In this document: positions 16,701 to 32,165 of the stretch, in pieces
Layout of the letters: each line of letters starts with the position of its first letter
Numbering within the stretch: position 1 is the stretch's first letter
Assembly: GCA_036481135.1 (NCBI GenBank)
Contig: JAZGHN010000037.1
Location: 1-39,862 of the forward strand
Source: Dehalococcoidales bacterium
GTDB lineage: Bacteria; Chloroflexota; Dehalococcoidia; Dehalococcoidales; E44-bin46
Length of the DNA: 39,862 bases
Reading direction: 5' to 3'
Translations under genes and position numbers: made by a program
The notes under the pieces: model-generated
The model's database searches: none
Told to the model about the DNA's origin: nothing
What the model saw: only the letters and a program-made list of their open reading frames with translations

Positions 16701-16776
16701 GGGGATATAGCTCAACTGGGAGAGCGCTGCGTTCGCATCGCAGAGGTCGGGGGTTCGAATCCCCCTATCTCCACCA
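16701..16776 (+). tRNA. tRNA-Ala(CGC)
   Basis: Cloverleaf folded by hand. Acceptor GGGGATA/TATCTCC with G3:U70, anticodon loop TTCGCAT, T-loop TTCGAAT, encoded CCA. Confidence 0.9.
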
Positions 16777-16785
16777 ATATATTAT

Positions 16786-16861
16786 GCCCCTGTAGCTCAG
16801 GTGGATAGAGCAACGGTTTCCTAAACCGTGTGCCCGGGTTCGAGTCCCGGCAGGGGTACCA
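16786..16861 (+). tRNA. tRNA-Arg(CCT)
   Basis: Acceptor GCCCCTG/CAGGGGT (a G1-U72 wobble), anticodon loop TTCCTAA, T-loop TTCGAGT, encoded CCA. Confidence 0.85.
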
Positions 16862-16957
16862 CACAGCTAAATCCCCTTCAGCAGAGGCCTTCACCATTTG
16901 CACCCAACTATGGGTTTTTGCTGCCCTCTTTTGAATATTCTCTCATCTAGTTGAGGG

Positions 16958-16986
16958 TTGACAAACGGCGAAACTGAATGTATACT
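16958..16986 (+). promoter_or_regulatory. Near-consensus sigma70 promoter, TTGACA-N17-TATACT
   Basis: TTGACA at 16958-16963 and TATACT at 16981-16986. Lies ~280 nt upstream of the AOR start codon, implying a long leader. Confidence 0.5.
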
Positions 16987-17262
16987 CCGAATTACTCCGG
17001 GATTTACCCTGAGTATGACTAATGGTTGACCACGTCTCCGTGTTTATATGGCCGGAGGGGTGTAAAAATAGGGGTTGGACTGAGACCAATCCTGTAGACC
17101 TAAACTACTGGGAACTTCAACATTGGGTCATCCCTGAAGATATCTATCCAAAAGAAGGGATAGTGTGACTTTTAAATGATGGGGATGCGCCATTTTTATT
17201 GCAACCCCCAAATGATAAAACTCTTAGTTGAATAAAGACAGACGGTTGGTTTAGGAGAAACA

Positions 17263-19128
17263 ATGCTCCCTCAAAGGGTTGCTTACTTAGATTTAAACAC
17301 AAGGAAGGTCGAACTCAAAGATATCCCCGAGGAAATAACCAAAAAATTTCTAGGCGGTCGGGGAATAAATATGTATCTGCTTTACCAGCATACTAAGCCT
17401 GGGATCGACCCCCTATCCCCGGAAAACCCCCTCATTATAGGGCCGGGACTGCTAACCGGATTAAAGGGAATCAGCGCTTCGAGGTCTAATATCTCGGGGA
17501 AATCTCCTGAGACAGGGCTCCTGGGAGATTCGAATATAGGGGGTGATTTTGGGGCATTCATGAAAAGGACGGGTATCGACTTTCTATTTATTACTGGTGC
17601 TGCTCAAAAGCCTGCTTATATTTATCTGGACGGTGAGAGTATCAGCGTAGAAGATGCCCAGGACTTATGTGGAAAATCCACTATAGAAACTAATACCATA
17701 TTAACCAAGCGCTATGGCCCGTCAAGTCAGTCCATTTCTATCGGGATAGCGGGGGAAAATTTAGTGCGCTTTGCCTGCATTATCAACAAGAGAAAGAATG
17801 CCGCTGCCAGGACAGGCATGGGCTGTCTCATGGGGGCTAAGAAGATAAAGGCCATCGTGGTCAAGGGAAGAAAACAGATAAAGCCCGAGGACAAAGGCAG
17901 ATTTGATGCTTTAGTGAAAGCACTTCAGCAGCGGTTAAATGAAGAGCGTTTGGTGAAGCTATTAGGAGAACTTGGCTCTCCCTACCTTTTTATACTGATC
18001 AATCGAATGATTGGCATGGGACGAGCCTATAATGGGCTTTCTACAAAGTTTCCCGAAAACGAGGATATCTCGCCCCAGATACTAAAGGAAAAATATTATC
18101 AAAGAAAAGAAGGTTGTTTCTCCTGTCCCGTTGCCTGCCATCATGAATACAGGGTGGGTGAAATAAGAAACGAGGGCCCAGACTATACCACTCTTAGCAG
18201 CTTTGGCCCTGTTCTGGGCATAGGAAAATTAGAAACGGTCCTCATTATAAATGACCTGATAAATCGCTACGGGCTGGATGCTAGCTCCACAGCCAACCTC
18301 ATTGCCTGGGCGATTGAATTATTCCAAGAGGGTCTCATCGATGAAAAGGTAACCCACGGCTTGAAGCTCGATTGGGGAGACGGAGAAGCCGTCAAGGAGT
18401 TGATTCACCAGATTGCTCACAGAAAAGGCTTTGGCGACCTCCTGGCCAATGGAGCGAGGGAGGCGGTAGGGCAACTGGGTGGAGAAACCGGCAATCACCT
18501 TATCTGGACCAAGTATTTACCCCAATCAGACCCGGTGGATTTGAGGGTTTTCCCTGCCTACGCCCTAGGAAATTCCGTCGCCTCCAGGGGTTCTGACCAT
18601 CTAAGAAGTCGGCCCACCTGGGAAGGTTACGGCCTCCCCGAAGAAGACCTGAAGACTATTTATGGCGGGTATGTTCCCTCCGACCCCCGCAGTTATCAGG
18701 GAAAAGGCAGGGTAATCTGGTGGAGGGAGACATACCTTTCTTTGTTTGATGCCTTGGGACTATGTAAACAGATTGCCTTAGCCTGTCAACCCGGTGTGTA
18801 TGACTTCGCCTTTTTCTCGGAGCTGATTCGCTGCGCCACAGGTCTTGATTTAACACCAGAGGAAATTTTTGCCGTGGGGGAGCGGATTGTAACCTTGGAA
18901 AGAATGTTTATTGTCAGGGAGGGAGTAAAAAGAGAGGATGACTTCCCGCCCCAGAGGTATTTTGAGCCTTTAGCCTGGCAGGATGGACTCAAACCGGCGG
19001 AGAGGAACCTGAAGCTGGATAGGGCGAATTTTGAGCAAATGCTGGATGAGTATTACCAGCTTCGCGGCTGGAATGGAGAAGGTAGCCCTCTGGAGAAAAC
19101 AAAAATGCGTTTGGGTTTAGGCCAATGA
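17263..19128 (+). CDS. Aldehyde:ferredoxin oxidoreductase family protein (tungstopterin/4Fe-4S type)
   Basis: 621 aa with AGGAG SD. AOR-family layout with the C-x2-C-x3-C motif (CFSCPVACHH) and downstream D..GLC (FDALGLCK). Confidence 0.85.
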   Translation: MLPQRVAYLDLNTRKVELKDIPEEITKKFLGGRGINMYLLYQHTKPGIDPLSPENPLIIGPGLLTGLKGISASRSNISGKSPETGLLGDSNIGGDFGAFMKRTGIDFLFITGAAQKPAYIYLDGESISVEDAQDLCGKSTIETNTILTKRYGPSSQSISIGIAGENLVRFACIINKRKNAAARTGMGCLMGAKKIKAIVVKGRKQIKPEDKGRFDALVKALQQRLNEERLVKLLGELGSPYLFILINRMIGMGRAYNGLSTKFPENEDISPQILKEKYYQRKEGCFSCPVACHHEYRVGEIRNEGPDYTTLSSFGPVLGIGKLETVLIINDLINRYGLDASSTANLIAWAIELFQEGLIDEKVTHGLKLDWGDGEAVKELIHQIAHRKGFGDLLANGAREAVGQLGGETGNHLIWTKYLPQSDPVDLRVFPAYALGNSVASRGSDHLRSRPTWEGYGLPEEDLKTIYGGYVPSDPRSYQGKGRVIWWRETYLSLFDALGLCKQIALACQPGVYDFAFFSELIRCATGLDLTPEEIFAVGERIVTLERMFIVREGVKREDDFPPQRYFEPLAWQDGLKPAERNLKLDRANFEQMLDEYYQLRGWNGEGSPLEKTKMRLGLGQ

Positions 19129-20120
19129 AGATAGCTATTATCGGCGCAGGAGCAATAGGTGCTTTAGTGGCTGGCTACCTCGCCAAAGAGGGCAGCGATG
19201 TCACCTTAGTTGGCAAAAAGAAGAACGTTTCAGCTATCAAAAAGAACGGCCTTATCATAGAAGGGGTGAGAGGAAGAATAGCCGTTCCAGTTAAGGTGAC
19301 AGATAAACTGGAAAAAGGCGCCGATTCGGTTATTTTGGCGGTTAAGACACAAGATATTGCTTCCACAATAAGCGACAATATCCAGGCCTTAAAGGACGTC
19401 CCCGTTCTCACCGTACAGAATGGAGTGCGGGCAGAAGAACGCCTTTCCGAATTTATCCCCAGAGAAAAGATTATCAGCAGTGTTGTCCTGTTTGGGATCA
19501 CATATCTTGAGCCAGGGAAGGTGGTCCATAACTTTGAAGGGGATTGGCTCATCGGCAAGGCATTTGTTCGGAATGATGGAGAGGTGGAGGCGATAAGAAA
19601 CCTTTTAAGCAACGCCTTCACTGTCCATGTCACCGAAGGAATAAGGGGAATGAAGTGGGTGAAGCTCTTCTTAAACTTGAATAATTGCCTTCCTGCGCTA
19701 ACCGGAAAAAGCATGCAGGAAACCTTTTCTCACCCAGAGATTTGTAAGGTAAGCATACGCCTCTTGCATGAAGCGCTGATGATAGTTGACCAAGCAGAGG
19801 TCAAGTTGGAGTCTCTGCCAGATTTCCCTGTGGAAAGGCTGCGGGCATTAACCGACATGCCGCTGGATAAAGCAAGCAAGATATTTTCGCAGACAATGAC
19901 CAATTTAAGCAAGGAGCCACTTTATGGCTCTATTCTTCAAAGTATACAGAGGGGGAGACCCTCTGAAATCGATTATTTCAACGGGGAGATAGTCTATTTG
20001 GGAGGGCAGATAGGGGTAGCAGCCCCTCTAAATGAGAAGTTGGCAAGAATGGTGCACAAAGTGGAAAGAGGGGGCGAGTTTTCCAGCCCAGAAGAAATTT
20101 TGAGCGAAGTTGGGAGGTAA
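19125..20120 (+). CDS. 2-dehydropantoate 2-reductase (ApbA/PanE) family NAD(P)-dependent oxidoreductase
   Basis: N-terminal MKIAIIGAGAIGALVAGYL Rossmann motif. 331 aa. ATGA overlap with the AOR stop. Confidence 0.7.
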   Translation: MKIAIIGAGAIGALVAGYLAKEGSDVTLVGKKKNVSAIKKNGLIIEGVRGRIAVPVKVTDKLEKGADSVILAVKTQDIASTISDNIQALKDVPVLTVQNGVRAEERLSEFIPREKIISSVVLFGITYLEPGKVVHNFEGDWLIGKAFVRNDGEVEAIRNLLSNAFTVHVTEGIRGMKWVKLFLNLNNCLPALTGKSMQETFSHPEICKVSIRLLHEALMIVDQAEVKLESLPDFPVERLRALTDMPLDKASKIFSQTMTNLSKEPLYGSILQSIQRGRPSEIDYFNGEIVYLGGQIGVAAPLNEKLARMVHKVERGGEFSSPEEILSEVGR

Positions 20121-20122
20121 GA

Positions 20123-20728
20123 ATGCCACAGGATTCTTCTAAGAGTACCAAAAGCAGTTCCCACGATATCCCTCTCCTGGTCACGATAACCAAGGTTGTG
20201 GGAAGGTGTTATCGGGGATACAAGGAGGGAGACCAGTTTATCCTTAAGGATTTTACCCATGTTCCTGAAGATTTTTGCCAGGGAGCGGGTACAGTACTCT
20301 TCCCTATCTTTTATGCCCTAAGCTTTGGGGCAGAGTTTCCCTTTGAAGAGAATCCCCGTTCTCTTCATACCTACTGTCCTGATGCCGGGGCGGTAGAGTT
20401 CCTCACCGAGGTACTGACCGAATCAGGAGAAGTGGAAAGGAAGCCGAAGGTAGAAAACGCCAAGCCAAACCCGAAGAAACTGGTCATAAGCGTAGAGGAA
20501 GTAAAAGGGCATTGTGTCTATGATTACAAGGTGGGAGATTCCTTTGAAACAACCGGGCTCAGAACCCCCGCTGGTTTTTGCGGGGCTGCCTATAATGCTA
20601 TCTTCCCTGTTCTTTTTGCCTTAAATTTTGGGGCAAGATTCCCCTTTTCCGAAGATGGCATAAGCAATTCACGAATAACCTGTCCTGATGGGGCAAAGGT
20701 TAGATTTAAGGTAAGGAGGGTTGAATAA
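20123..20728 (+). CDS. Tandem-duplicated TIGR04076-like Cys-rich protein of unknown function
   Basis: Two ~85-aa internal repeats (GRCYRGYKEGDQF...FCQGAGTVLFPIFYALSFGAEFPF...CPDAGAVEF and GHCVYDYKVGDSF...FCGAAYNAIFPVLFALNFGARFPF...CPDGAKVRF). Confidence 0.6.
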   Translation: MPQDSSKSTKSSSHDIPLLVTITKVVGRCYRGYKEGDQFILKDFTHVPEDFCQGAGTVLFPIFYALSFGAEFPFEENPRSLHTYCPDAGAVEFLTEVLTESGEVERKPKVENAKPNPKKLVISVEEVKGHCVYDYKVGDSFETTGLRTPAGFCGAAYNAIFPVLFALNFGARFPFSEDGISNSRITCPDGAKVRFKVRRVE

Positions 20729-20729
20729 G

Positions 20730-21992
20730 ATGAAGAGGCGAGTAGTAGTTACCGGTGTGGGGGTCATTTCCCCCAATGGGGTTGGCAAAGAGGCACTCTG
20801 GGAAGGGATGGCTTCAGGCAAGTCGGGAGTAAGACGTGTCACCGATTTTGATGTATCTCAGTTCCATTCCCAGATAGCAGCCCAAGTAACTGATTTCGAC
20901 CCATTTGCCTTTGGTCTCACCCAAGAGGATGTGGAGAGAATGGACCGCTATGTACAGTTTGGCGTAGCAGCAACACAAACCGCTTTAGATGATGCTAAAC
21001 TCCTTCTAAATGGAGCCAATAGAGGCAGAATGGGCGTTTGCCTGGCCAATGCCATCTGCGGCACGAGATATATGGAAGAGGAATTCCTACGGGTAACCAA
21101 TGGAGGGAGCGACCCTATCGACCCCAGAAAGGCAAGACCCTACCTTTATGACGCCTCGATGTTTAACACCCCCTCCAGTGAGATAGCTGCTCGCCATAGA
21201 CTAAGAGGCATTTGCACCACCGTTTCCACCGGTTGTACCGCCGGTACCGATGCCGTGGGCTTTGCCTATGAAGCTGTCCAGATGGGAGAAGCGGATGTCA
21301 TGATTACCGGTGCTGCTGAGGCACCTCTTTGCCCTATCACCTTTGCCGCCTTTGACGTCATTAATGTTCTCTCTACCAGAAACGATGAGCCAGAGAAGGC
21401 ATCAAGGCCCTTTGACAAGGAAAGGGACGGATTTGTCCTTGCTGAAGGTTGCGGCATTTTGGTCCTGGAGGAATTGGGGCATGCTTTGAGCCGAGGCGCC
21501 CACATCTATTGTGAAATCACTGGTTTTGGCACCTGTTGTAATGCCTACCATATGACAGATTTGCCCCCCGATGGCGATAGCATGGCTGCCTGTATCAAGC
21601 TCGCCTTAAAAGATGCGGAGTTGCCCCACGAAACTATCGACTATATAAATGCTCATGGGAGTTCCACCAAGCAGAATGACATATTTGAGACAAACGGATA
21701 TAAGCAGGTTTTTGGCAAGAGAGCATATGATATTCCAGCAAGTTCCCTGAAATCTATGATTGGTCATCCCCTGGCTGCTGCCAATAGCATAGAGCTGGTA
21801 GCCGATGCCCTTGCTTTCGAACACGATGTTTTACCACCTACCATAAATCAAGAGGTGCCTGACCCTCTATGTGATTTGGACTATATTCCCAATAAGGCTC
21901 GGGAGAAACGAGTTGACCACGTCCTTAAAACCAGCAGCGGTTTCTCTGGTATTCATTCCTCTATGATATTGAGTAGGTGGAATTCAAGGTGA
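20730..21992 (+). CDS. Type II PKS-like ketosynthase alpha (KS-alpha)
   Basis: ATG at 20730 with an AGGAGGG SD. Active-site VSTGCTAGTDAVGFA, plus NAYHMTD and INAHGSSTKQND (Cys-His-His triad), and SLKSMIGHPL. These signatures match aromatic PKS KS-alpha better than FabF. Confidence 0.8.
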   Translation: MKRRVVVTGVGVISPNGVGKEALWEGMASGKSGVRRVTDFDVSQFHSQIAAQVTDFDPFAFGLTQEDVERMDRYVQFGVAATQTALDDAKLLLNGANRGRMGVCLANAICGTRYMEEEFLRVTNGGSDPIDPRKARPYLYDASMFNTPSSEIAARHRLRGICTTVSTGCTAGTDAVGFAYEAVQMGEADVMITGAAEAPLCPITFAAFDVINVLSTRNDEPEKASRPFDKERDGFVLAEGCGILVLEELGHALSRGAHIYCEITGFGTCCNAYHMTDLPPDGDSMAACIKLALKDAELPHETIDYINAHGSSTKQNDIFETNGYKQVFGKRAYDIPASSLKSMIGHPLAAANSIELVADALAFEHDVLPPTINQEVPDPLCDLDYIPNKAREKRVDHVLKTSSGFSGIHSSMILSRWNSR

Positions 21993-23200
21993 AGAAGGTA
22001 GCGCTTACCGGAATAGGCATCGTAGCCCCTCCCGGAATCGGGAAGGAAAGATTCTGGCAAGGCATTAAACAGGGAAAATCCTTCATTTCCCCTATTACCA
22101 GCTTTGACGCCTCGCTCTATCCCTCGCAAGTGGCCGGGCAGGTTGAGGACCTAGATACCAGCCACTTCTCCTTCCGCCTGTTAAAGAAGCTAGATAAATT
22201 CTCGGTGATGGCTTTAGTGGCTACTGAGCATGCCTTAAAAGACGCCCTTATAGATTTAGATAAGGAAGACCCCTATAACATAGGCATCTTTCTGGGAAAT
22301 GCCTTAGGGGGATGGCTCTATGCCGAGACAGAGCTGCGCGACCTTTACGTAGAGGGCAGACAAGGGGTAAGCCCGTATCTGGCTAGCGCCTGGTTTCCCG
22401 CTGCCCCCCAAGGTCAAATCTCTATCTATTATGGCATAAAGGGATACAGCAAGACGATGGTCGCAGACAAGGCGAGCGCTTTAATGGCCATTGGTTATGC
22501 TGCCAAGGTAGTGGGCAACAAAAAAATAGGCATTGCTCTGGCTGGGGGCACCGAGGCACCGGTTACTCCTTATGCCCTGCTTTGCTGTAGCACAGAGGGC
22601 TCACTGTCACAGGGTCCTTACCGACCTTTTGATAAAGAAAGAGACGGGCTTGTTGTTGGTGAAGGGACAGGACTGGTGGTCTTAGAGGAAATGGAATCTG
22701 CCCGGAAAAGGGGGGCAACCATTTACGGGTTGATTACCGGCTATACCACTTGCTGTGATGGTGCTTGCCGTATTGCGCCAGACCCAACTGGCAAGGGACT
22801 GGCTGAGGCGATAAAGACCACCTTAGATATGGCTGGTTATCAGCCCGGCGACATTGATTATATCTGTGCCGATGGGATGGGAACAAAATCGGGAGATGTT
22901 AGCGAGACAAAAGCAATAAAAGAAGTATTTGGCAGTTATGCCCAAAAGATACCGGTTAGCGCCCCAAAGTCCATGTTTGGTCATCTCATGGGGGCATCTA
23001 ATGCCGTTGATGTTATCACTACCCTCCTGGCCATGCAAGAAGGAATTATCCCCCCCACTATAAACTACCAAACCGAAGACCCTGAATGCGATTTAGATTA
23101 TGTGCCTAATAACAGCCGACCCAAAGAGATCAACCGAGCCCTTATTCTCGCCCGCGGTCGCGGAGGAATAAACGCCGTTCTGGCCATAGAAAGGAGCTAA
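21989..23200 (+). CDS. Ketosynthase beta / chain-length-factor-like subunit (catalytic Cys absent)
   Basis: GTG at 21989 overlaps the KS-alpha TGA (GTGA coupling); the alternative GTG at 21977 is the ORF-track start. Thiolase fold, but the active-site position reads MVADKASALMAIGYA and both His motifs are degenerate (CCDGACR, CADGMGTKSGD). Confidence 0.75.
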   Translation: MKKVALTGIGIVAPPGIGKERFWQGIKQGKSFISPITSFDASLYPSQVAGQVEDLDTSHFSFRLLKKLDKFSVMALVATEHALKDALIDLDKEDPYNIGIFLGNALGGWLYAETELRDLYVEGRQGVSPYLASAWFPAAPQGQISIYYGIKGYSKTMVADKASALMAIGYAAKVVGNKKIGIALAGGTEAPVTPYALLCCSTEGSLSQGPYRPFDKERDGLVVGEGTGLVVLEEMESARKRGATIYGLITGYTTCCDGACRIAPDPTGKGLAEAIKTTLDMAGYQPGDIDYICADGMGTKSGDVSETKAIKEVFGSYAQKIPVSAPKSMFGHLMGASNAVDVITTLLAMQEGIIPPTINYQTEDPECDLDYVPNNSRPKEINRALILARGRGGINAVLAIERS

Positions 23201-23202
23201 GA

Positions 23203-23439
23203 TTGGCAGAGGTAGACGAAACGATAAAAGGAATGCTTATGAAGTCCTTTGATATGAAGCCCGAAGAGCTCACCATGGAGGCGAATCTAAAGAAAGACCT
23301 TGAGATGGACTCGCTGGAGATGGTGGAATTGGAGGTGGCTTTAGAGGAGGAGTTCAAGATTGACATTAAGGATGGCGAGATTACCAATAAGAATTGTGTG
23401 GGTGATGTGATCAAAGTTGTACAGGATAAGCTCAAGTAA
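23203..23439 (+). CDS. Acyl carrier protein
   Basis: 78 aa with a DSL phosphopantetheine attachment motif (LEMDSLEMVEL). AGGAG SD, TTG start. Confidence 0.85.
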   Translation: MAEVDETIKGMLMKSFDMKPEELTMEANLKKDLEMDSLEMVELEVALEEEFKIDIKDGEITNKNCVGDVIKVVQDKLK

Positions 23440-24245
23440 TGAGGATTATAGACCTGAGTCTCCCTATTGATGATAGTGTTTCCGAGACTCACCCGGTAGA
23501 AATAGAGAGATGGGAGCACAGGAGTGGTGGAGACCGACTTGGCAAGCTATGGGCTAGGTCTCAGGGGATAAAGGGACGCATGAAACATATCACCGGGAAG
23601 GAGCGGATCACGCGCGATTGCTTTAAGGACGGGCTCTTTTTGTCTCTAGAATGGGTTAGAGCCACGGTGCATAGCGGCACCCATCTTGACGCCCCATATC
23701 ATTACGGGCCGTACTCCGAAGGAAAACCAGCAAAGAAAATAGAGGATATCCCACTGGAGTGGTGCTATGGCGATGGTGTGGTTCTGGATTGCTCTGATAA
23801 AGGCGCGGGAGAGGTTATCACCGAAGCAGACATAAAAAAGGCACTGGGCAAAATAAAGTATAAGATAAAGCCCTTTGATATCGTCCTTATTCACACCGGT
23901 GCCGATAAGCTCTGGGGGACAAAGAAGTATTTTTCTCATTATGTCGCCCTAAGCAGAGATGCGTTAGCCTACATTGTGAACTTCGAGGTAAAGGTTATCG
24001 GGGTTGATATCTTCAGCCTAGACCGTCCCCTTCCGGCTATGGTGAGGGACTTCTTAAAGACCAAGGACAATAGTTATCTCTGGCCTGTCCATTTCTATGG
24101 CAGGGAAAAAGAATATTGTCATATAGAAAGGCTGGCCAATCTGGATAAGATTCCCCAGCCCTACGGCTTTAAGGTGGCTTGCTTCCCCGTAAAGATAAAA
24201 GGGGCTGGTGCCGCCTGGGTAAGGGCGGTGGCTATTATTGAATAA
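23439..24245 (+). CDS. Cyclase-family protein (kynurenine-formamidase/putative cyclase fold)
   Basis: HSGTHLDAPYHY metal-binding motif. 268 aa. TAATG overlap with the ACP stop. Confidence 0.75.
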   Translation: MRIIDLSLPIDDSVSETHPVEIERWEHRSGGDRLGKLWARSQGIKGRMKHITGKERITRDCFKDGLFLSLEWVRATVHSGTHLDAPYHYGPYSEGKPAKKIEDIPLEWCYGDGVVLDCSDKGAGEVITEADIKKALGKIKYKIKPFDIVLIHTGADKLWGTKKYFSHYVALSRDALAYIVNFEVKVIGVDIFSLDRPLPAMVRDFLKTKDNSYLWPVHFYGREKEYCHIERLANLDKIPQPYGFKVACFPVKIKGAGAAWVRAVAIIE

Positions 24246-24258
24246 AAAGGAGTGGAAA

Positions 24259-24702
24259 ATGGGACAGACGGTAAACTCTATCTTGATTAAGGCACCCTAT
24301 GATGCGGTGTTTGACATCTCCAATGACATTGAAAGGTGGACAGAACTATTCGGCGGGGAGTATACGGAGGCGAAGATATTAAAACGGGAGGGGAATAAAC
24401 TTACCTTCAAGCTAACCGACGATGAAGGCAATTCTTGGCAATCCTTCCGTCTCTTATTTAAAGACTACTACTTTGCCTATGCCCAGAAGCTGGAGCCAAC
24501 ATTCCCCTTCGATTATATGAAGATTATCTGGCTTTATACCCCTGTGCCCGAGGGGATACTTATGACCTGGATTCAATTCTTTTCCATGGCGGAGGGGGCA
24601 AAATTCAACGATGAGCAGGTTGAGGGTTTCATCAATAAACATTCCACGGATAACCTGAAGATATTTAAAGAGGTGATAGAGAAAGAGGCGAAAAAGAGGT
24701 GA
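24259..24702 (+). CDS. SRPBCC-superfamily polyketide cyclase/aromatase-like protein
   Basis: ATG at 24259 after an AAGGAG SD (the ORF-track TTG at 24238 is less likely). ~147 aa with N-terminus VNSILIKAPYDAVFDISNDIERW, typical of TcmN/START-like cyclases. Confidence 0.65.
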   Translation: MGQTVNSILIKAPYDAVFDISNDIERWTELFGGEYTEAKILKREGNKLTFKLTDDEGNSWQSFRLLFKDYYFAYAQKLEPTFPFDYMKIIWLYTPVPEGILMTWIQFFSMAEGAKFNDEQVEGFINKHSTDNLKIFKEVIEKEAKKR

Positions 24703-24705
24703 GAG

Positions 24706-25479
24706 ATGAGTGAATTGAGAGGCAAAACCGCCATTGTTACCGGGGCAAGTAGAGGTATCGGGAGGTCGATTGGGGAAGCACTGGCCAAGGAAGGGATGAA
24801 CTTAGCCCTCGCAGCACGAGGTAAAGAGGTGCTGGAGAAGACGGCAAAGGAGCTGTCTGAGCAATATAAGGTGAAGATATTGCCTGTGCCATGCGATGTT
24901 TCCCAACAAAAAGACCTGGAGAATCTGGTAACAGCCGCCATTAAAGAATTCAAGAAGATAGACGCCTTAATCAACAGCGCCGGGGTAAGCAGCCAACACC
25001 CCTTCCAGGACCAACCAGTGGAGGACATCCCCAGGCTTATGTATACCAACTATTTTGGCCCAGTGATGCTTACCCGCTTGATTATCAATCACTTTATCGA
25101 AAATAAAGGCGGAGCCATTATAAATATCACCTCCGGCTCTACCCTGGTAGACCCTCCACCGAGAAACTTCATTGTTTATACCTCTCTTAAACAGGCATTA
25201 AAAGCCTTTGGCAAGGGACTTTTCTGGGAGGTGCGGGATTTTGGCATAAAGGTGACCTCAATCATGCCAGGGGTAACCGATACCGCCCTAACCGGCGGGC
25301 TTAAAGACGTCTCTGTGGACAAGTCTCGTCTCATGCAAACCGGGGTGATAGAGGATGCGGTTAAGTTCGCCCTTACCGTGCCAGCCAACGTCTGCCCCCT
25401 GGAGATTTCAGTTATCAACCAGCGCACCCCCTGGACAAGACCGATAATTCCATATAAACAGGCACATCCGAAAGAATGA
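24706..25479 (+). CDS. Short-chain dehydrogenase/reductase (ketoreductase)
   Basis: TGASRGIG cofactor motif, NSAG, and catalytic Y-x3-K (YTSLKQALK). Confidence 0.85.
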   Translation: MSELRGKTAIVTGASRGIGRSIGEALAKEGMNLALAARGKEVLEKTAKELSEQYKVKILPVPCDVSQQKDLENLVTAAIKEFKKIDALINSAGVSSQHPFQDQPVEDIPRLMYTNYFGPVMLTRLIINHFIENKGGAIINITSGSTLVDPPPRNFIVYTSLKQALKAFGKGLFWEVRDFGIKVTSIMPGVTDTALTGGLKDVSVDKSRLMQTGVIEDAVKFALTVPANVCPLEISVINQRTPWTRPIIPYKQAHPKE

Positions 25480-26384
25480 TGTTTGACGCACATGCTCATT
25501 GGCTACCAAGAGAAATTATTGATAACGCCCACTTTTTCTCCCCTGCCTGGGGTGATATCAAGCGGCAACTGGCACTTATGGATAAATTCCACATTGAGAG
25601 AGCACTCCTCCTCTACCCCACCAGCGATGCCTACCAACAGATGGGCGGCCTGCAGAAAGTAGCCAGGATTTACAACAACAGCATAGCCGAGGTGGTGAAA
25701 CGATATCCGGAGAGATTTATCGGAGCAGCCATCCTGCCCGTAGATGAACCAGAGGCGATGGTCACAGAATTTGACCGTGCCACCGAGGAATTGGGCTTCA
25801 AAGCCATCTCTCTGGCTACAAGCTTTGAGGGCGTCTATCTGGACGATGATAGATTTCATCCGCTCTACGAAAGGGCAGAGGCATCAAATACACCCCTCTT
25901 TGTCCACCCCCAAACCATAAATCCCATAGGTTTTGAACAAGTGAAGGACCCGTTACTTACCCCAGTGATTGAATTTGTCTTTGATACCACCATGTGCATC
26001 GGCAAATTGATGACCGCCGGGACACTGAGAAGATTCCCCAATCTGAAATTTGTCTTTGCCCACTTCGGCGGGGTGATGCCCTTTATCAAGGAGAGATTTG
26101 ATACCGTATATAAGATGCTGAGAGGGAGAAACATAGTGAAAGACCTCTTTGCTCTGCCCAGCGACTATCTGAAGCAGATATATGTGGATACCAGCGGGGC
26201 TACCTCTCCTTCTACCCTGATGAGCACCCTGGAAATGGTGGGGGCGGAACATACTCTATGGGGCAGCGATTACCCCAGCAATCCTGATGTCTCAGCATCA
26301 ATCGCCGCCATAGAGGGGCTGGACATCCCGTCAGAGGATAAGAAAAGGATACTGGGCGCGAATATAGAGCGAGTATTGGGTTAA
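25476..26384 (+). CDS. Amidohydrolase_2 family protein (ACMSD-type metal-dependent decarboxylase/hydrolase)
   Basis: N-terminal DAHAHWLP (HxH) motif, FVHP, AHFGG, and the C-terminal WGSDYP motif typical of this family. ATGA overlap with the SDR stop. Confidence 0.75.
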   Translation: MMFDAHAHWLPREIIDNAHFFSPAWGDIKRQLALMDKFHIERALLLYPTSDAYQQMGGLQKVARIYNNSIAEVVKRYPERFIGAAILPVDEPEAMVTEFDRATEELGFKAISLATSFEGVYLDDDRFHPLYERAEASNTPLFVHPQTINPIGFEQVKDPLLTPVIEFVFDTTMCIGKLMTAGTLRRFPNLKFVFAHFGGVMPFIKERFDTVYKMLRGRNIVKDLFALPSDYLKQIYVDTSGATSPSTLMSTLEMVGAEHTLWGSDYPSNPDVSASIAAIEGLDIPSEDKKRILGANIERVLG

Positions 26385-26444: not shown

Positions 26445-26520
26445 AGGAGTGTAGCTCAGTTGGGAGAGCAACGGTCTCCAAAACCGTAGGTCGGGGGTTC
26501 GAGTCCTCCCACTCCTGCCA
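26445..26520 (+). tRNA. tRNA-Trp(CCA)
   Basis: Acceptor AGGAGTG/CACTCCT, anticodon loop CTCCAAA, T-loop TTCGAGT, encoded CCA. Confidence 0.9.
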
Positions 26521-26525
26521 GACAA

Positions 26526-26613
26526 GCCGGGGTGGCGGAAGCAGGTAGACGCGCTAGCTTGAGGGGTTAGTGCCCGCAAGGGCGTGGGAGTTCAAATCTC
26601 CCCTCCGGCACCA
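26526..26613 (+). tRNA. tRNA-Leu(GAG)
   Basis: Acceptor GCCGGGG/CTCCGGC, anticodon loop TTGAGGG, long variable arm, T-loop TTCAAAT, encoded CCA. Confidence 0.85.
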
Positions 26614-26618
26614 AAAGG

Positions 26619-26693
<75 letters not shown>

Positions 26694-26794: not shown

Positions 26795-26823
26795 TTGACA
26801 CAAAAGAGGGTGTGGGTTATACT
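26795..26823 (+). promoter_or_regulatory. Near-consensus sigma70 promoter, TTGACA-N17-TATACT, upstream of pylSc
   Basis: TTGACA at 26795-26800 and TATACT at 26818-26823. Same hexamers and spacing as the promoter at 16958. Confidence 0.45.
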
Positions 26824-26915: not shown

Positions 26916-27764
26916 TTGTCCGCAATGTCCATCACACTAACAGAAACCCAAAAACAACGTCTGCGAGAATTGGATGCTGATACCCGCTTGGCGGAGAAGG
27001 TATTCAGCGATGTCCAAGAGCGGGACGCAAGCTTCAAGATGATGGAGAAGAGTTTGATTGAGGGGGAAAAACAGCACTTGCGAAACCTCCGCCGCCATCA
27101 TCGCCGCCCCGCAGTTTGTCAAATAGAGAACACCCTGGTAAATAAACTTACCGAAGAAGGTTTTGTCCAGGTTATTACCCCCCTAATCATAACCAAGGCA
27201 TTTTTAGAGAAGATGACTATCACCGCTAGCAATCCCCTGATAAATCAGGTTTTTTGGCTCAGTAAGAATAAGTGTCTGCGACCAATGCTGGCGCCAAATC
27301 TCTATTATCTTCTGAGGCGGCTTGTCCGCTTATGGAAAAAACCCATCCGTATTTTTGAAGTAGGCCCATGCTTTCGCAAAGACACTCAAGGGAGTGAGCA
27401 CCTAAATGAATTTACCATGCTGAACCTTGTTGAGCTGGGCTTACCCCCGGAAAGCAGGCAGGCACGGTTAAAAGAGTTAGCCTCCCTCCTCATGGGAGTT
27501 ATCGGTATAGATAAGTACCAGTTGGTTTCCAAGCCATGCGAAGTCTATGGCGAAACAGTGGACATCGCGACCGATACCGGTATCGAGCTTGGTTCGGCAG
27601 CAATGGGTCCCCATCCCTTGGATGATGCCTGGAGAATAGTTGACCCGTGGGTAGGGTTAGGAATGGGTTTGGAGAGGCTGGTAATGGCGAAACAGGGGTA
27701 TCAAAATATTCAGAGAGCAGGACGCAGCTTGATATACCTTGATGGGGCAAGACTGAACATCTAG
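26916..27764 (+). CDS. pylSc: Pyrrolysyl-tRNA synthetase, catalytic C-terminal polypeptide (PylSc)
   Basis: Very close to the Desulfitobacterium PylSc sequence I recall: GFVQVITP.IITK, QVFWL..NKCLRPMLAPNLY, IRIFEVGPCFRKDTQGSEHLNEFTMLNL (class II motif 2), IVDPWVGLGMGLERL, YLDGARLNI. The start is TTG 26916 or ATG 26925. The stop is TAG. Confidence 0.9.
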   Translation: MSAMSITLTETQKQRLRELDADTRLAEKVFSDVQERDASFKMMEKSLIEGEKQHLRNLRRHHRRPAVCQIENTLVNKLTEEGFVQVITPLIITKAFLEKMTITASNPLINQVFWLSKNKCLRPMLAPNLYYLLRRLVRLWKKPIRIFEVGPCFRKDTQGSEHLNEFTMLNLVELGLPPESRQARLKELASLLMGVIGIDKYQLVSKPCEVYGETVDIATDTGIELGSAAMGPHPLDDAWRIVDPWVGLGMGLERLVMAKQGYQNIQRAGRSLIYLDGARLNI

Positions 27765-27894
27765 CTAATCGGGTACAAGGAGGGGGAACTATATGATGTA
27801 AATGGCACTCTACAAGTTGGCCTGTCCAATTAAAATAGGCGGGGTGTTGGGCTGAAGAGAAACAAAAAATACAGCAAAGGAGGGTTTAACATTA

Positions 27895-28545
27895 ATGGCA
27901 GGACAGAAAGAGATACTAGAAAAGGCAAAGCAATCAATCATTGACTTCGACAAAGGTAAGGCGGAAGCAACTGCCAAGGAGGGTTTGTCCAGCGGGATTG
28001 GCCCAGCTACAATAATAAATGAGGGATTTGTTCCTGGAATAACTCAGGTGGGTAACCTTTTTGACCGGGGGCAAATATTCCTGCCGGAATTGATGCTGGC
28101 GTCTGAAGCAATGAAGACAGGGTCAGCAATATGTATAGCAGCACTCCCTGCATCAGAGGTTCAGGCAACGAAGAAAGTAGTAATCGGGACCGTGGAAGGA
28201 GATGTCCACGACATCGGAAAATCGATTGTTGTCTCCTTCTTATTAGCCAATGGCTTTGAGGTCTATGATATAGGTAGAGATGTGCCTATTGAGAAATTCG
28301 TGGAGAAGACTCGTGAGGTAAATGCGGATGTGGTTGGGGCAAGCGCTTTATTGACCACCACTATGGAGGGGCAGAGGACGGTAATAGAAGAGCTAAAGAA
28401 AGCTGGGTTGCGGGATAAGGTCAAAGTAATCATAGGTGGAGCGCCAGTCAGCCAACCATGGGCCGACCGCATAGGAGCAGATGCCTATGCTGAAAACGCC
28501 GTAGACGGAGTAAACAAGATAAAGAAATTAACCGGCTTGGCATAA
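27895..28545 (+). CDS. Cobalamin-binding corrinoid protein (MtmC/MtbC/MttC-like)
   Basis: 216 aa with an N-terminal helical cap plus a B12-binding Rossmann domain carrying the D-x-H-x2-G motif (GDVHDIGKSIV), SALLTTT, and GGA. Confidence 0.85.
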   Translation: MAGQKEILEKAKQSIIDFDKGKAEATAKEGLSSGIGPATIINEGFVPGITQVGNLFDRGQIFLPELMLASEAMKTGSAICIAALPASEVQATKKVVIGTVEGDVHDIGKSIVVSFLLANGFEVYDIGRDVPIEKFVEKTREVNADVVGASALLTTTMEGQRTVIEELKKAGLRDKVKVIIGGAPVSQPWADRIGADAYAENAVDGVNKIKKLTGLA

Positions 28546-28564
28546 TAGAGTCGATAATAACATC

Positions 28565-29686
28565 GTGATGAGAGATAATACCTGTTTTGGTATAGAGGGA
28601 ATATTAGCCAAAGCACTGTGCGAGGAGTCTCTAACCAAAGGGGAGGTCCTTTCTTTACTCAGCTTAAAGCAAGCTGACGACATTAAGAAGCTCTTTGAGG
28701 TAGCACGGAGACTAAGAGACCGATATTTTGGCAATAGCATTTTTCTTTACGGGTTCCTCTACTTCTCCACCTGGTGCCGTAATAACTGTGCCTTCTGTTA
28801 TTATCGCGCCTCTAATAGATTGTGCCAGCGATATCGGAAAACTGAGCGCCAGGTTATGGAAGCGGCTCTTGAGACGGCAGACTCCGGGGTTCACCTGCTT
28901 GATTTAACTATGGGAGAAGACCCCTTTTATTACCAAGGGAAAGATGGCTTTGAGCCCCTACTACACCTGATAAAAGAGATTAAACGGCAAACATCTTTAC
29001 CGATAATGATTTCCCCCGGAGCTCTCCCCGACGAAGTTTTAGCGAAGCTATTTGAGACAGGGGCGGAGTGGTACGCCTGCTATCAGGAAACCCACAATAA
29101 AAAACTCTACCACCAGCTCCGGTTGAATCAGAGCTACAGTGATAGGCTCAGGAAGAAGTATAAGGCGGCTCAGTTAGGTGTACTCATTGAGGAAGGGATA
29201 TTAGCTGGGGTGGGGGAATCGTTAGAAGATGTAGCCGACTCTATGGAAGAGATGCGGAGGATGGGGGCTCACCAGGTGCGTGTTATGAATTTTATTCCTC
29301 AAAAGGGAACCCCCATGCATGATTTTCCTCCACCCCCTAAAATGCGTGAACTGCTAATTATTGCTGTTTTGCGTCTACTGTTTCCTCGTCGGTTGATACC
29401 TGCTTCTCTTGATGTATATGGTATTGAGGGGCTCAAGGGAAAGCTAGAAGCTGGAGCTAATGTAGTTACTTCCTTAATTCTCCCCCATTCGGATATGGTA
29501 GGTGTAGCCCAAAGTACCCTGGATATCGCCGAGGGTCACCGGACAGTAGAGGGAATAACCCCGATACTCAATGAATTGGGGCTAACCAAGGCCAGACTTG
29601 ATGATTATATCTCGTGGATTGAGAAGAAAAGAAAGAGCTATATAGATGTAGATAGGTATCGGCTTAGAGAAAAGGTATTGTTGTGA
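28565..29686 (+). CDS. pylB: 3-methylornithine synthase (radical SAM)
   Basis: CRNNCAFCYY (CX3CX2C) in FLYFSTWCRNNCAFC, then LDLTMGEDPFYY, LPIMISPG, YQETH, RLIPASLD and GANVVTS. These are collinear with the Methanosarcina PylB I recall. Confidence 0.9.
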   Translation: MMRDNTCFGIEGILAKALCEESLTKGEVLSLLSLKQADDIKKLFEVARRLRDRYFGNSIFLYGFLYFSTWCRNNCAFCYYRASNRLCQRYRKTERQVMEAALETADSGVHLLDLTMGEDPFYYQGKDGFEPLLHLIKEIKRQTSLPIMISPGALPDEVLAKLFETGAEWYACYQETHNKKLYHQLRLNQSYSDRLRKKYKAAQLGVLIEEGILAGVGESLEDVADSMEEMRRMGAHQVRVMNFIPQKGTPMHDFPPPPKMRELLIIAVLRLLFPRRLIPASLDVYGIEGLKGKLEAGANVVTSLILPHSDMVGVAQSTLDIAEGHRTVEGITPILNELGLTKARLDDYISWIEKKRKSYIDVDRYRLREKVLL

Positions 29687-30858: not shown

Positions 30859-30860
30859 AT

Positions 30861-31682: not shown

Positions 31683-31709
31683 TGAGGGAGTAGCCTAAAA
31701 TATTAGACA

Positions 31710-31781
31710 GGGGGGTTGATCGGAAAGATCACACAGACTCTAAATTTGTGTAGCCGGGTGTAACTCCCGGACTCCCCGCCA
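31710..31781 (+). tRNA. pylT: tRNA-Pyl (CUA anticodon), amber suppressor
   Basis: Hand fold of GGGGGGT-T-GATC-GGAAA-GATC-A-CACAGA-CTCTAAA-TTTGTG-TAG-CCGGG-TGTAACT-CCCGG-ACTCCCC-G-CCA. One nt separates the acceptor and D stems. 5-nt D-loop without GG, 6-bp anticodon stem, 3-nt variable loop, non-TPsiC T-loop, G73 discriminator. Anticodon CTA at 31740-31742. Confidence 0.9.
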
Positions 31782-31811
31782 TAAGTTGATCGAGATAACA
31801 GGGGAAAAGCA

Positions 31812-32165
31812 TTGACAGATAAGACACACAAAAGAATCTACTGGCAACAGGTCCCCCTCTTTCAAATGATAGATAAGATCAAACTGTGGCCTTCTCGAAA
31901 GGGAGTCCTCCACGGGATCAGAACCTTTGAAACCAAGGGGGGGTCTTGTGCTTATCTGGTCACCCACTGTAATGAGCAGATAACGATACGCAATTCTAAG
32001 AACTGTCGTGCCGCCCGCTGGCTTCGCAATAAATGGTCTGTTAAGCCATGTGAGAAGTGTAAAACCCCTGAATGGAAGCTCGAAAAATATTCAGAGACAG
32101 TTTTCAAGCGTGGCCGGATTCCTGCTTATTTACTGGAGCAGACGCAACAAGCGGAGTCTAAGTAA
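31812..32165 (+). CDS. pylSn: Pyrrolysyl-tRNA synthetase N-terminal tRNA-binding polypeptide (PylSn)
   Basis: KLWPSRKGVLHGIR and IRNSKNCRAARWLRNKWSVKPCEKCK align by eye with the Methanosarcina PylRS N-domain ([39 protein letters not shown]). TTG start at 31812; an alternative ATG at 31866 is possible. Confidence 0.8.
   Translation: MTDKTHKRIYWQQVPLFQMIDKIKLWPSRKGVLHGIRTFETKGGSCAYLVTHCNEQITIRNSKNCRAARWLRNKWSVKPCEKCKTPEWKLEKYSETVFKRGRIPAYLLEQTQQAESK

Follow-up and report, generated by a model that had tools for sequence, protein, structure and literature searches.

A putative aromatic type II polyketide synthase operon in an uncultured Dehalococcoidales bacterium appears to belong to a large conserved gene cluster family of anaerobes

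A ten-gene operon of an uncultured Dehalococcoidales bacterium, encoded on contig JAZGHN010000037.1 (the window, i.e., the whole stretch of DNA analysed here, is 39,862 nucleotides (nt) long), raises the question of whether such an organism can make an aromatic polyketide with a polyketide synthase (PKS) of type II and what part the redox enzymes encoded at the 5' end of the same operon might play. Nearly all known aromatic type II PKSs come from actinobacteria, and anaerobes have so far yielded few such products, namely clostrubin, the dendrubins and wexrubicin. Judging from the sequence comparisons described below, the locus is quite likely a functional-looking type II (dissociated, iterative) aromatic PKS operon that is native to an uncultured strict anaerobe. 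We infer that its product would be a decarboxylated phenolic polyketide, and the metabolite is probably a phenolic compound widespread across these anaerobes.

The operon consists of ten consecutive open reading frames (ORFs), all on the plus strand, that jointly span 9.1 kb (17263-26384) and encode, in this order, an aldehyde:ferredoxin oxidoreductase (AOR), a PanE-like protein, a double TIGR04076 protein, a catalytic ketosynthase (KS-alpha), its inactive partner (KS-beta), an acyl carrier protein (ACP), a PF04199 cyclase, an SRPBCC protein, a short-chain dehydrogenase/reductase (SDR) and an Amidohydro_2 protein (Table 1). The initial annotation, made from the sequence alone, had already described a coupled operon of these ten genes, and the ORF coordinates, the Pfam and NCBIfam assignments and the motifs in the translations all agree with that description. 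It had also described nearly all junctions as ATGA, GTGA or TAATG overlaps or gaps of at most 13 nt, and this part stands as well: the AOR and PanE-like genes overlap by 4 nt (ATGA), the latter is separated by 2 nt from the TIGR04076 gene, which is followed by KS-alpha after 1 nt (ATG 20730) or overlaps it by 8 nt (TTG 20721), and KS-alpha overlaps KS-beta by 4 nt (GTGA, GTG 21989) or 16 nt (GTG 21977). Further downstream, the ACP and cyclase genes overlap by 1 nt (TAATG), the cyclase and SRPBCC genes are 13 nt apart (ATG 24259) or overlap by 8 nt (TTG 24238), a 3-nt gap precedes the SDR gene, and the SDR and Amidohydro_2 genes again overlap by 4 nt (ATGA). The spacing between KS-beta and ACP, previously given as a 26-nt overlap or a 22-nt gap, had been misdescribed. 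The KS-beta stop codon occupies 23198-23200 and the earliest ACP start is the TTG at 23203, so that the gap is 2 nt, and the downstream ATGs at 23233 and 23239 would leave gaps of 32 or 38 nt. An AGGAG lies 7 nt upstream of this TTG, which is the better start because ACP models align from residue 2 of the resulting 78-amino acid (aa) form and the orthologue in a Dehalococcoidales relative (L005) is called at 79 aa. As had been noted from the sequence, oxygenases are missing: the ten proteins have no match to any oxygenase family in Pfam (E<=0.01).

KS-alpha contains the motifs STGCTAG, YHMTD and NAHGSS, which read in the translation as a Cys-His-His triad. Its best solved relatives in the PDB are the actinorhodin (act) KS-alpha (396 bits) and AntD of Photorhabdus (392 bits), against at most 350 bits for any FabF, and with small profiles it scores 608 bits for KS-alpha versus 463 bits for FabF. 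Both KS-alpha (464.9 bits) and KS-beta (376.8 bits) fall below the cut-off of the FabF equivalog TIGR03150 (493.75). Among plasmid matches, KS-alpha is 54-55% identical to the KS of an Azospirillum brasilense type II PKS and 49-52% identical to many Streptomyces KS-alpha proteins, and at two of the Streptomyces loci (L091, L092) an annotated chain-length factor (CLF) adjoins the KS. The similarity to the highly reducing ishigamide KS of the Iga11 type (6KXD_A) is much lower, 245 bits against the 396 bits for act KS-alpha, and the Pfam matches of the operon proteins include no FabZ/FabA-type dehydratase and no enoyl reductase. A neighbor-joining (NJ) tree of 40 sequences (Kimura distances, 200 bootstraps) was built with a small reference set drawn from PDB alignments, annotated plasmids and E. 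coli K-12, with the den and clr sequences left out. In this tree, the KS-alpha family groups with AntD and the Azospirillum KS-alpha (94% bootstrap), and the whole KS-alpha clade, including the window, act and Streptomyces proteins, has 99% bootstrap, with FabF and the FabF-like protein that Dehalococcoidia themselves encode outside. The gene for the latter is separate and located in a plsY-fabF-degV context in two relatives (L012, L017). A position within the FabF/FabB fatty acid synthases, the outcome that the initial annotation had named as fatal to its proposal, is thus at odds with the PDB scores, the profiles and the 99% NJ bootstrap alike, and these comparisons clearly assign KS-alpha to the aromatic type II PKSs.

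KS-beta lacks the catalytic triad: it has Lys at the position of the Cys, and Cys and Asp at the positions of the two His residues. In all 120 of its 120 closest homologues, Lys or Arg takes the place of the Cys and Asp that of the second His, and the residue corresponding to the first His varies. Because the Cys is missing and Asp replaces the second His throughout, these sequences are best described as a coherent inactive family and not as a pseudogene-like accident. In the same NJ tree, KS-beta groups with the Azospirillum, Streptomyces and act CLFs (99% bootstrap), with which it has in common an AWF..GQISI segment, and with the Azospirillum CLF it further shares AWFPAAPQGQISI and a GGW gate signature as well as a basic residue at the position of the Gln of actinobacterial CLFs. 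At the positions of the act-CLF gate residues Phe109', Thr112' and Phe116' it has Trp, Ala and Leu, respectively, of which the Trp (109') and the Leu (116') do not vary within the family. Sequences of KS-beta from different phyla are 60-65% identical, and the identity to actinobacterial CLFs is only 36-38%. KS-beta might represent a little-diverged, early-branching CLF.

Three of the remaining PKS-type genes, those of the PF04199, SRPBCC and Amidohydro_2 proteins, add to the aromatic interpretation. For the ACP, the nearest models are those of housekeeping AcpP (42% identity to E. coli AcpP). The solved relatives of the PF04199 protein, isatin hydrolase and kynurenine formamidase, are weak matches, and its closest plasmid homologues (41-49% identity) adjoin KS, PKS or ACP genes (Staphylococcus haemolyticus, KS/CLF-like pair; Crinalium, type I PKS; Kitasatospora, ACP), which is why this subfamily appears to be PKS-associated. 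The polyketide cyclases OxyN, DpsY and MtmY are of the PF04199 type, and the 'OxyN' cyclase of the dendrubin cluster would presumably be of this type too. The SRPBCC protein aligns over its full length with the TcmN aromatase/cyclase (ARO/CYC; 90 bits, E 1.3e-24) and with WhiE (84 bits, E 1e-22), and retains equivalents of the TcmN residues Y35, W65, S67, R69, M91, W95, W108, Q110 and N136, with R82 replaced by Lys; these residues line the pocket in the TcmN structure. Among the sequence matches, this one is the strongest single argument for an aromatic product. The best solved relatives of the Amidohydro_2 protein are the 5-carboxyvanillate decarboxylase LigW (106 bits), ACMSD, gamma-resorcylate decarboxylase and 2,3-dihydroxybenzoate decarboxylase. 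Thus, the TcmN/WhiE-type SRPBCC protein, the decarboxylase relatives and the PKS-adjacent PF04199 homologues jointly strengthen the aromatic reading and, together with the placement of KS-alpha, bear out the aromatic type II PKS architecture that had been proposed from motifs. For the SDR, a distinction between an actIII-type C9 ketoreductase and FabG was sought, and the comparison was uninformative, with identities of ~29-31% alike to E. coli FabG, to the FabG-like ketoreductase (KR) of a Streptomyces type II PKS cluster and to the SDRs of the Azospirillum cluster.

The search with the PF04199 protein also yielded a plasmid locus of Staphylococcus haemolyticus (L095; NZ_CP120084.1, 5826-8821) that encodes a cyclase-family protein 44% identical to that of the window, in the order FAD oxidoreductase and three hypothetical genes, cyclase, KS, 'KS N-terminal-like' (CLF-like) protein and VOC protein. 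By its gene content, this looks like an unrecognised type II PKS-like cassette. Further matches of the cyclase are located on plasmids of Priestia, Bacillus, Enterococcus, Lactobacillus and Apilactobacillus.

Three further proteins are encoded 5' of the KS pair. The best solved relative of the AOR is the Pyrococcus furiosus AOR (1AOR, 308 bits), and an assignment as a BamB-type benzoyl-CoA reductase was rejected, given the 197 bits for BamB versus 308 for the classical AOR. In the alignment to 1AOR, the window protein keeps the CxxCxxxC and GLC cysteines, i.e., the ligands of the [4Fe-4S] cluster, and the equivalents of the active-site residues Glu313 and His448 of the P. furiosus enzyme. Hence it looks cofactor-competent, and tungsten binding and aldehyde oxidation are predicted; no ferredoxin gene was found adjoining it. 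The PanE-like protein scores 177 bits with TIGR00745 (cut-off 141) and stays below every equivalog cut-off. In the tandem TIGR04076 protein, each repeat contains three invariant cysteines (C29/C52/C85 and C131/C153/C187), and the AlphaFold2 model has a pLDDT of 90.4. The two papers that mention TIGR04076 merely speculate about its function. A 154-aa protein of some Omnitrophota loci was considered as a diverged TIGR04076 protein and dismissed (hhalign probability 0.2%).

The link between the PKS genes and these redox genes follows from comparison with other genomes. KS-beta relatives were sought with a pattern scan of one genome per species and were found in 495 species genomes, with Omnitrophota foremost among the hosts. 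The best 80 of these 495 are uncultured anaerobes, comprising Dehalococcoidales, Syntrophaceae/Syntrophobacter metagenome-assembled genomes (MAGs), many Omnitrophota, Planctomycetales-labelled MAGs, Thermodesulfobacteriota and one Patescibacteria-labelled MAG; named hosts are, among the Omnitrophota, Ca. Velamenicoccus archaeovorus (complete genome, 1.97 Mb) and, among the Thermodesulfobacteriota, the benzene-culture organism ORM2a. A 1.55-Mb Omnitrophota chromosome is also among the hosts. Synteny was assessed by tblastn of the window proteins and of their Omnitrophota neighbours onto all loci, and genes were counted in those 31 loci that have 8 kb or more of flanking DNA on each side. In the relatives, the 5' half of the cluster has the order [acyl-CoA-ligase-like]-nucleoside phosphorylase-MtnA-like isomerase-class II aldolase-aldehyde dehydrogenase (ALDH)-B12-radical SAM-small proteins-PanE-like-TIGR04076x2, and the 3' half the order KS-alpha-KS-beta-ACP-PF04199-SRPBCC-MFS-SDR-PC4-like-Amidohydro_2. 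Homologues of the PF04199 and SRPBCC proteins are encoded in all 31 loci, those of the PanE-like protein (immediately 5' of the KS genes) and of the Amidohydro_2 protein in 30 each, and the SDR and the B12-radical SAM protein (BchE/HpnJ-like) in 29 each. ALDH or AOR, the isomerase and the aldolase are each present in 26 of the 31, the phosphorylase and an MFS transporter inside the cluster in 23 each, and TIGR04076x2 in 21. That a minimal PKS and redox genes belong together, as proposed from the operon of the window, is therefore supported by synteny across phyla (PanE 30/31, ALDH or AOR 26/31 loci), with the cassette found syntenic in Dehalococcoidales, Omnitrophota (Ca. Velamenicoccus archaeovorus included) and Thermodesulfobacteriota.

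Most relatives have an NAD(P)-type ALDH in the slot of the AOR, and an AOR takes its place in the versions encoded by Dehalococcoidales, Syntrophaceae and part of the Thermodesulfobacteriota. The phosphorylase and isomerase genes, which are located upstream in Omnitrophota, are shifted 3' of the Amidohydro_2 gene and still linked in Thermodesulfobacteriota and some other loci; for example, in Dehalococcoidia bacterium UBA5760 (L017, 14436-19616) PNP_UDP_1 and IF-2B/MtnA-like genes follow right after the Amidohydro_2 gene on the opposite strand. Compared with these loci, the window has a reduced ten-gene form of the cluster. By these comparisons, the cluster belongs to a large conserved family, which the initial annotation had not noticed and in which AOR and ALDH are interchangeable.

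Several loci of this family show peculiarities of their own. In L017, a 986-aa Eco57I/MmeI-type restriction-modification gene is inserted between PNP_UDP_1 and IF-2B, and plsY, a FabF-like KS gene and degV precede the AOR gene. Two Thermodesulfobacteriota MAGs (L057, L023) contain, between the SRPBCC and Amidohydro_2 genes, a second, divergent AOR-like gene whose product is 32-34% identical to the window AOR, and no SDR was detected in either locus by tblastn. In a MAG labelled uncultured Syntrophobacter sp. (L011), the KS-alpha, KS-beta (80% identity) and AOR sequences fall among the Dehalococcoidales versions and not with those of other Thermodesulfobacteriota, which indicates either horizontal transfer or a mis-binned contig.

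The genomic setting suggests that the cluster is native to its host, which is most likely a strictly anaerobic member of the Dehalococcoidales. The closest genome-resolved relatives of KS-beta (71-87% identity) come from Dehalococcoidales/Dehalococcoidia MAGs, the AOR protein is found identical on three metagenome assemblies with the same neighbours, and the window also encodes mannosyl-3-phosphoglycerate synthase, a complete pyrrolysine cassette and the RACo corrinoid activase. The operon lies between two tRNA gene groups and was considered as a recently inserted tRNA-flanked genomic island; this was rejected given that its G+C content is that of the flanks and that the glnA/gatB and pyl flanks recur in a relative with 76% identity. 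In this relative (L005, identical to L014), glnA-gatB is located upstream and the pyl genes downstream, as in the window. Because these flanks are shared and there is no G+C anomaly, the location looks native and the cluster does not appear to have been recently acquired.

How would such a pathway work? We propose that KS-alpha and KS-beta elongate an ACP-bound chain with malonyl units, with malonyl transfer and phosphopantetheinylation supplied from elsewhere in the genome. The chain would be short, at most ~C16, because the residues that correspond to F109' and F116' of the act-CLF gate are a bulky, invariant Trp and Leu. One carbonyl may be reduced by the SDR, the TcmN-type enzyme would fold the chain and aromatise the first ring, and the PF04199 protein would close a further ring or release the chain. 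Finally, the LigW-like decarboxylase could remove the carboxyl group and thus yield a phenol; none of these steps would need O2. For the AOR, the most likely reaction is the conversion of an aldehyde into a carboxylic acid, with ferredoxin as the electron acceptor, and the PanE-like and TIGR04076 proteins might perform or support further reduction. Since the AOR interchanges with NAD(P)-type ALDH in the family, the reaction common to both would be that of aldehyde to acid, and since the phosphorylase, the MtnA-like isomerase, the FucA-like aldolase and sometimes an acyl-CoA-ligase-like adenylating enzyme adjoin the ALDH in the relatives, the acid could be a pathway substrate, e.g., a starter unit. 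On the same grounds, it is a speculative possibility that the aldehyde derives from a 5'-deoxynucleoside and that the resulting acid is used by the pathway, perhaps as a starter after activation by the ligase.

Taken to its full extent, this line of thought leads to an undescribed pathway widespread among anaerobes, with the operon as its Dehalococcoidales version, which we consider rather unlikely as a whole and in which a C2-aldehyde obtained from a 5'-deoxynucleoside is oxidised and feeds an early-branching type II PKS that makes a physiological phenolic or quinone-like metabolite. The source nucleoside would be 5'-deoxyadenosine, methylthioadenosine or a radical-SAM adenosylation adduct, cut by the phosphorylase, the MtnA-like isomerase and the class II aldolase. 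Oxidation would be carried out by ALDH in most relatives and by the tungsten AOR in the window, and the product might be a redox carrier or a cofactor part for Omnitrophota, Dehalococcoidales and Thermodesulfobacteriota. The DHAP (dihydroxyacetone phosphate) shunt of 5'-deoxyadenosine or methylthioadenosine and the post-fluorinase steps to fluoroacetate use a phosphorylase, an isomerase, an aldolase and an aldehyde dehydrogenase. In relatives of the cluster, the genes for the phosphorylase, MtnA-like isomerase, FucA-like class II aldolase and ALDH follow one another in that order; in contrast to these routes, the window itself lacks the phosphorylase, isomerase and aldolase, and the connection to a PKS consists of the conserved neighbourhood only.

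Several observations weigh against the interpretation of the locus as an aromatic PKS operon with dedicated redox enzymes. KS-beta scores 373 bits with the CLF profile versus 384 with the FabF profile, which is equivocal, and in the PDB it reaches 249 bits with act CLF versus 303 with FabF. It also has Lys where actinobacterial CLFs have Gln, a difference that recurs as Lys or Arg in its relatives and in the Azospirillum CLF; the Gln is a mark of an actinobacterial subgroup and not of all CLFs. The putative CLF ancestry of KS-beta rests on the small NJ tree and shared motifs, so that the earlier designation as a CLF holds with respect to the absent catalytic Cys and the 99% grouping with CLFs and is left equivocal against FabF by the profile and PDB scores. 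The estimate of chain length from the gate residues is by analogy only, and the SDR is, as far as its sequence goes, indistinguishable from generic FabG-like reductases. No phosphopantetheinyl transferase (PPTase), malonyl transferase or starter-loading enzyme is encoded in the window, nor did tblastn detect genes for the phosphorylase, isomerase, aldolase, B12-radical SAM protein or ligase anywhere within its 39.8 kb, and the role of the AOR in the window is deduced from the relatives. The TIGR04076 tandem has no significant fold relative in the PDB (Foldseek); the best matches, XdhC-like proteins (E 0.13, TM 0.28), were not accepted as a sign of a cofactor-chaperone role.

Two alternatives leave the PKS enzymology intact. 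The same enzymes could make a conserved physiological molecule required by these anaerobes (e.g., a phenol or quinone with redox activity, part of a cofactor or the head group of a lipid) and no antibiotic-like metabolite. This is possible, if not what we would expect, and would explain the retention of the cassette even in the small genomes of Omnitrophota. The spread of KS-beta relatives over 495 species genomes, including those of 1.97 and 1.55 Mb, their 60-65% identity between phyla, the very stable gene order and, in the lineage of the window, the unremarkable base composition and the housekeeping genes nearby (glnA, gatB, tRNAs) all fit such a role, whereas the MFS transporter gene in 23 of the 31 clusters suggests export, and the patchy distribution among phyla together with the grouping of L011 fits horizontal transfer or mis-binning. 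It is more doubtful that two unrelated modules share one transcript, with the AOR, PanE-like and TIGR04076 proteins serving general aldehyde and keto-acid metabolism. AORs are broad-specificity housekeeping enzymes in many anaerobes and that of the window is closest to the generic P. furiosus enzyme; the ALDH of the relatives adjoins genes of an apparently ordinary 5'-deoxynucleoside or methylthioadenosine salvage shunt; and TIGR04076x2 is absent from 10 of the 31 loci. Nevertheless, the genes concerned are tightly coupled (AOR-PanE by ATGA, PanE-TIGR04076 by 2 nt and TIGR04076-KS-alpha by 1 nt), the PanE-like gene is located immediately 5' of the KS genes in 30 of the 31 loci and ALDH or AOR is linked in 26, and the linkage outlasts rearrangement, with the PNP/IF-2B genes upstream in Omnitrophota and downstream in Thermodesulfobacteriota and some Dehalococcoidia.

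Other explanations change the chemistry itself. A fatty-acid-like or lipid pathway that builds a non-aromatic acyl chain (aryl-polyene, highly reducing or 'ladderane-type'), with the SRPBCC protein as a dehydratase, would agree with the nearly equal similarity of KS-beta to FabF and CLFs, with the affinity of the ACP to housekeeping AcpP models and with the BchE/HpnJ-like B12-radical SAM gene in 29 of the 31 relatives. Surveys based on antiSMASH have reported 'ladderane'-type clusters in Omnitrophota (PMC9902471), which may or may not include this locus. This pathway is nonetheless improbable given that KS-alpha is of the aromatic type II kind and gives only 245 bits with 6KXD, that the SRPBCC protein aligns with TcmN/WhiE from end to end and retains the pocket residues, that the operon has no FabZ/FabA-type dehydratase or enoyl reductase by Pfam, and that the aromatic-acid-type decarboxylase is conserved. 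The least probable explanation is a catabolic locus, in which an aromatic or alicyclic substrate would undergo ring hydrolysis (PF04199/amidohydrolase), thiolytic cleavage (KS) and aldehyde oxidation (AOR). Some hosts do degrade aromatics, e.g., the benzene-fermenting ORM2a and Syntrophaceae MAGs, and hydrolases that cleave rings as well as reversible (de)carboxylases are known in the PF04199 and Amidohydro_2 families. However, a decarboxylating KS with a Cys-His-His triad, an inactive partner and a dedicated ACP form a biosynthetic arrangement, no catabolic role is known for the TcmN-type cyclase, and the cassette occurs commonly in Omnitrophota with small genomes, whose lifestyle has been described as predatory or host-dependent (PMC12583861).

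Returning to the reading as an aromatic type II PKS, the window operon can be compared with characterised systems. It resembles the actinorhodin minimal PKS (1TQY) and other Streptomyces type II PKSs in KS-alpha (47-51% identity) with its Cys-His-His triad, in the inactive partner, the dedicated ACP and the coupled KS/CLF genes, and in the presence of ARO/CYC, KR and cyclase-type genes. It differs from them in KS-beta (36-38% identity, Lys for Gln and a Trp/Ala/Leu gate), in the lack of oxygenases, in its anaerobic Chloroflexota host and in the attached AOR, PanE-like and TIGR04076 genes. Among the non-actinobacterial 'ancestral' PKSs (ant, den, clr), the AntD/E anthraquinone PKS of Photorhabdus (6SMO) is close in that KS-alpha groups with AntD and the Azospirillum protein (94%), and the dendrubin (den) and clostrubin (clr) PKSs of anaerobic Firmicutes are likewise encoded by anaerobe clusters with no oxygenases. 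The dendrubin architecture combines KS-CLF-ACP with TcmN-type cyclases and an 'OxyN' cyclase (PMC7693217). The window operon differs from these systems in its phylum and in having a single mono-domain TcmN-type gene in place of TcmN-TcmN, and it adds the Amidohydro_2 decarboxylase, the AOR, the PanE-like protein and the TIGR04076 tandem.

The closest KS pair found in a cultured organism belongs to the type II PKS cluster on plasmid p3 of Azospirillum brasilense Sp7 (L090; NZ_CP012917.1, ~132665-145216), a plant-associated alphaproteobacterium, with 55% identity for KS-alpha and a CLF that has the SWFPAAPQGQ signature and the gate Trp in common with KS-beta and carries a basic residue, Arg, in place of the Gln. 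This cluster also encodes an ACP and two SDRs. Unlike the window operon, it is aerobic in style, with a di-domain SRPBCC protein, four ABM monooxygenases, a PPTase and RND efflux genes, and it has no PF04199, Amidohydro_2, PanE, TIGR04076 or AOR genes. We know of no reported product of this cluster. With regard to single enzymes, the SRPBCC protein matches TcmN and WhiE (2RER, 3TVR) over the full length with conserved pocket residues, and differs from them in its ~30% identity, the Lys in place of R82, a 2-residue deletion at W63 and its stand-alone form with no O-methyltransferase fusion. The Amidohydro_2 protein matches the LigW, gamma-resorcylate and 2,3-dihydroxybenzoate decarboxylases near full length (76-106 bits), and O2-independent chemistry of this type would suit the removal of a polyketide carboxyl group; nevertheless, the relationship is distant, there is no equivalog match, and the family also holds hydratases and hydrolases. 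The fungal 6-methylsalicylate decarboxylase also belongs to the amidohydrolase_2 decarboxylase group. The AOR aligns with that of P. furiosus (1AOR) end to end, including the [4Fe-4S] cysteines and the Glu and His equivalents, and is distinct from it in being the first gene of a PKS operon and in being replaced by an NAD(P)-type ALDH in related clusters.

The initial annotation had left room for a known pathway, and no characterised equivalent of the cassette was found in the open-access literature, where subscription papers may be missed; nor was any description found there of the AOR/ALDH-PanE-TIGR04076 module or of the breadth of the cassette. The nearest mention is a KS-CLF catalogue that places Candidatus Omnitrophica in an 'unexplored non-actinobacterial clade', with no products or gene-cluster analysis (PMC10132072). 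The locus would represent a complete TcmN-type aromatic PKS cassette lacking any oxygenase gene. Its family, whose hosts include the small-genome predator Ca. Velamenicoccus archaeovorus and organohalide-associated Dehalococcoidales, points to a widespread metabolite in anoxic habitats. The aldehyde-oxidising enzymes, together with the 5'-deoxynucleoside-processing and B12-radical SAM genes of the relatives, suggest chemistry that is undescribed for type II PKSs. Furthermore, KS-beta, which is located near the FabF/CLF split and has Lys/Arg for Gln, bears on the origin of CLFs and on the role of that residue. At 9.1 kb, the ten-gene operon is compact enough for synthesis and expression.

Table 1. 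Operon genes, boundaries and other annotated features of the 39,862-nt window
Feature	Coordinates	Strand	Size, matches and remarks
AOR-family (tungsto)pterin aldehyde:ferredoxin oxidoreductase	17263..19128	+	621 aa; AFOR_N 230, AFOR_C 324 bits
PanE/ApbA-family NAD(P)H-dependent oxidoreductase	19125..20120	+	331 aa; ApbA + ApbA_C
Tandem double TIGR04076	20123..20728	+	201 aa; TIGR04076 in two stretches, 96.1 bits (cut-off 33); no Pfam family
KS-alpha, predicted catalytic ketosynthase	20730..21992	+	420 aa; ketoacyl-synt/Ketoacyl-synt_C; ATG 20730, alternative TTG 20721
KS-beta, chain-length-factor-like partner	21989..23200	+	403 aa; ketoacyl-synt/Ketoacyl-synt_C; GTG 21989, alternative GTG 21977; no catalytic triad
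ACP	23203..23439	+	78 aa from TTG; PP-binding; Ser37 in MDSLEM/DSL motif
PF04199 'cyclase', metal-dependent hydrolase fold	23439..24245	+	268 aa; Pfam 113 bits; HSGTHLDAPYH (HxGTHxDxPxH)
SRPBCC mono-domain TcmN/WhiE-type aromatase/cyclase	24259..24702	+	147 aa; Polyketide_cyc; ATG 24259, alternative TTG 24238
SDR, classical, putative ketoreductase	24706..25479	+	257 aa; adh_short + KR
Amidohydro_2, putative non-oxidative aromatic-acid decarboxylase	25476..26384	+	302 aa; Pfam 116 bits
Candidate promoter-like site TTGACA-17-TATACT	16958..16986	+	11/12 consensus positions; ~277 nt 5' of AOR start
Upstream boundary: tRNA-Ala(CGC), tRNA-Arg(CCU)	16701..16861	+	ARAGORN, Rfam
Downstream boundary: tRNA-Trp, tRNA-Leu(GAG), tRNA-Gly(GCC)	26445..26693	+	ARAGORN, Rfam
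pylSc	26916-27764		
Methyltransferase-cognate corrinoid protein	27895-28545		
pylB	28565-29686		
pylC	29683-30858		
pylD	30861-31682		
tRNA-Pyl	31710-31781		anticodon CUA
pylSn	31812-32165		TIGR03912, 120 bits
CDP-alcohol phosphatidyltransferase	2669-3277	-	
GT4 glycosyltransferase	3277-4494	-	
Myo-inositol-1-phosphate synthase	4535-5638	-	
HAD phosphatase	6934-7767	-	
Mannosyl-3-phosphoglycerate synthase	7888-9084	-	

The segment around the promoter-like site upstream of the operon (~16956-17031) is ~78% conserved in two Dehalococcoidales relatives (L015, L005). Sites of this kind are no more numerous in the region than expected by chance, which leaves this one as a candidate only. A riboswitch in the ~277-nt leader was considered and found no support, with no Rfam match at the gathering threshold in the window and none at E<=1 in 16850-17300; conservation of the leader among the relatives is limited to the promoter-proximal 50-76 nt. 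A second promoter-like site of the same TTGACA-17-TATACT pattern (11/12) precedes pylSc (26795-26823), and both sites are located in intergenic regions right after tRNA groups.

Directly downstream of the operon, the window encodes a complete pyrrolysine cassette of the bacterial type (26916-32165), in which the insertion of a corrinoid-protein gene between pylSc and pylB is unusual, the host being a probable member of the Dehalococcoidales. After pylSn come genes for a pterin-binding methyltransferase-like protein, a Met_synt_B12-like protein and the RACo corrinoid activase (33908-35863). On the minus strand near the other end of the window (2669-9084), genes for compatible-solute or inositol-lipid synthesis are interleaved with truB, rbfA, infB and nusA.

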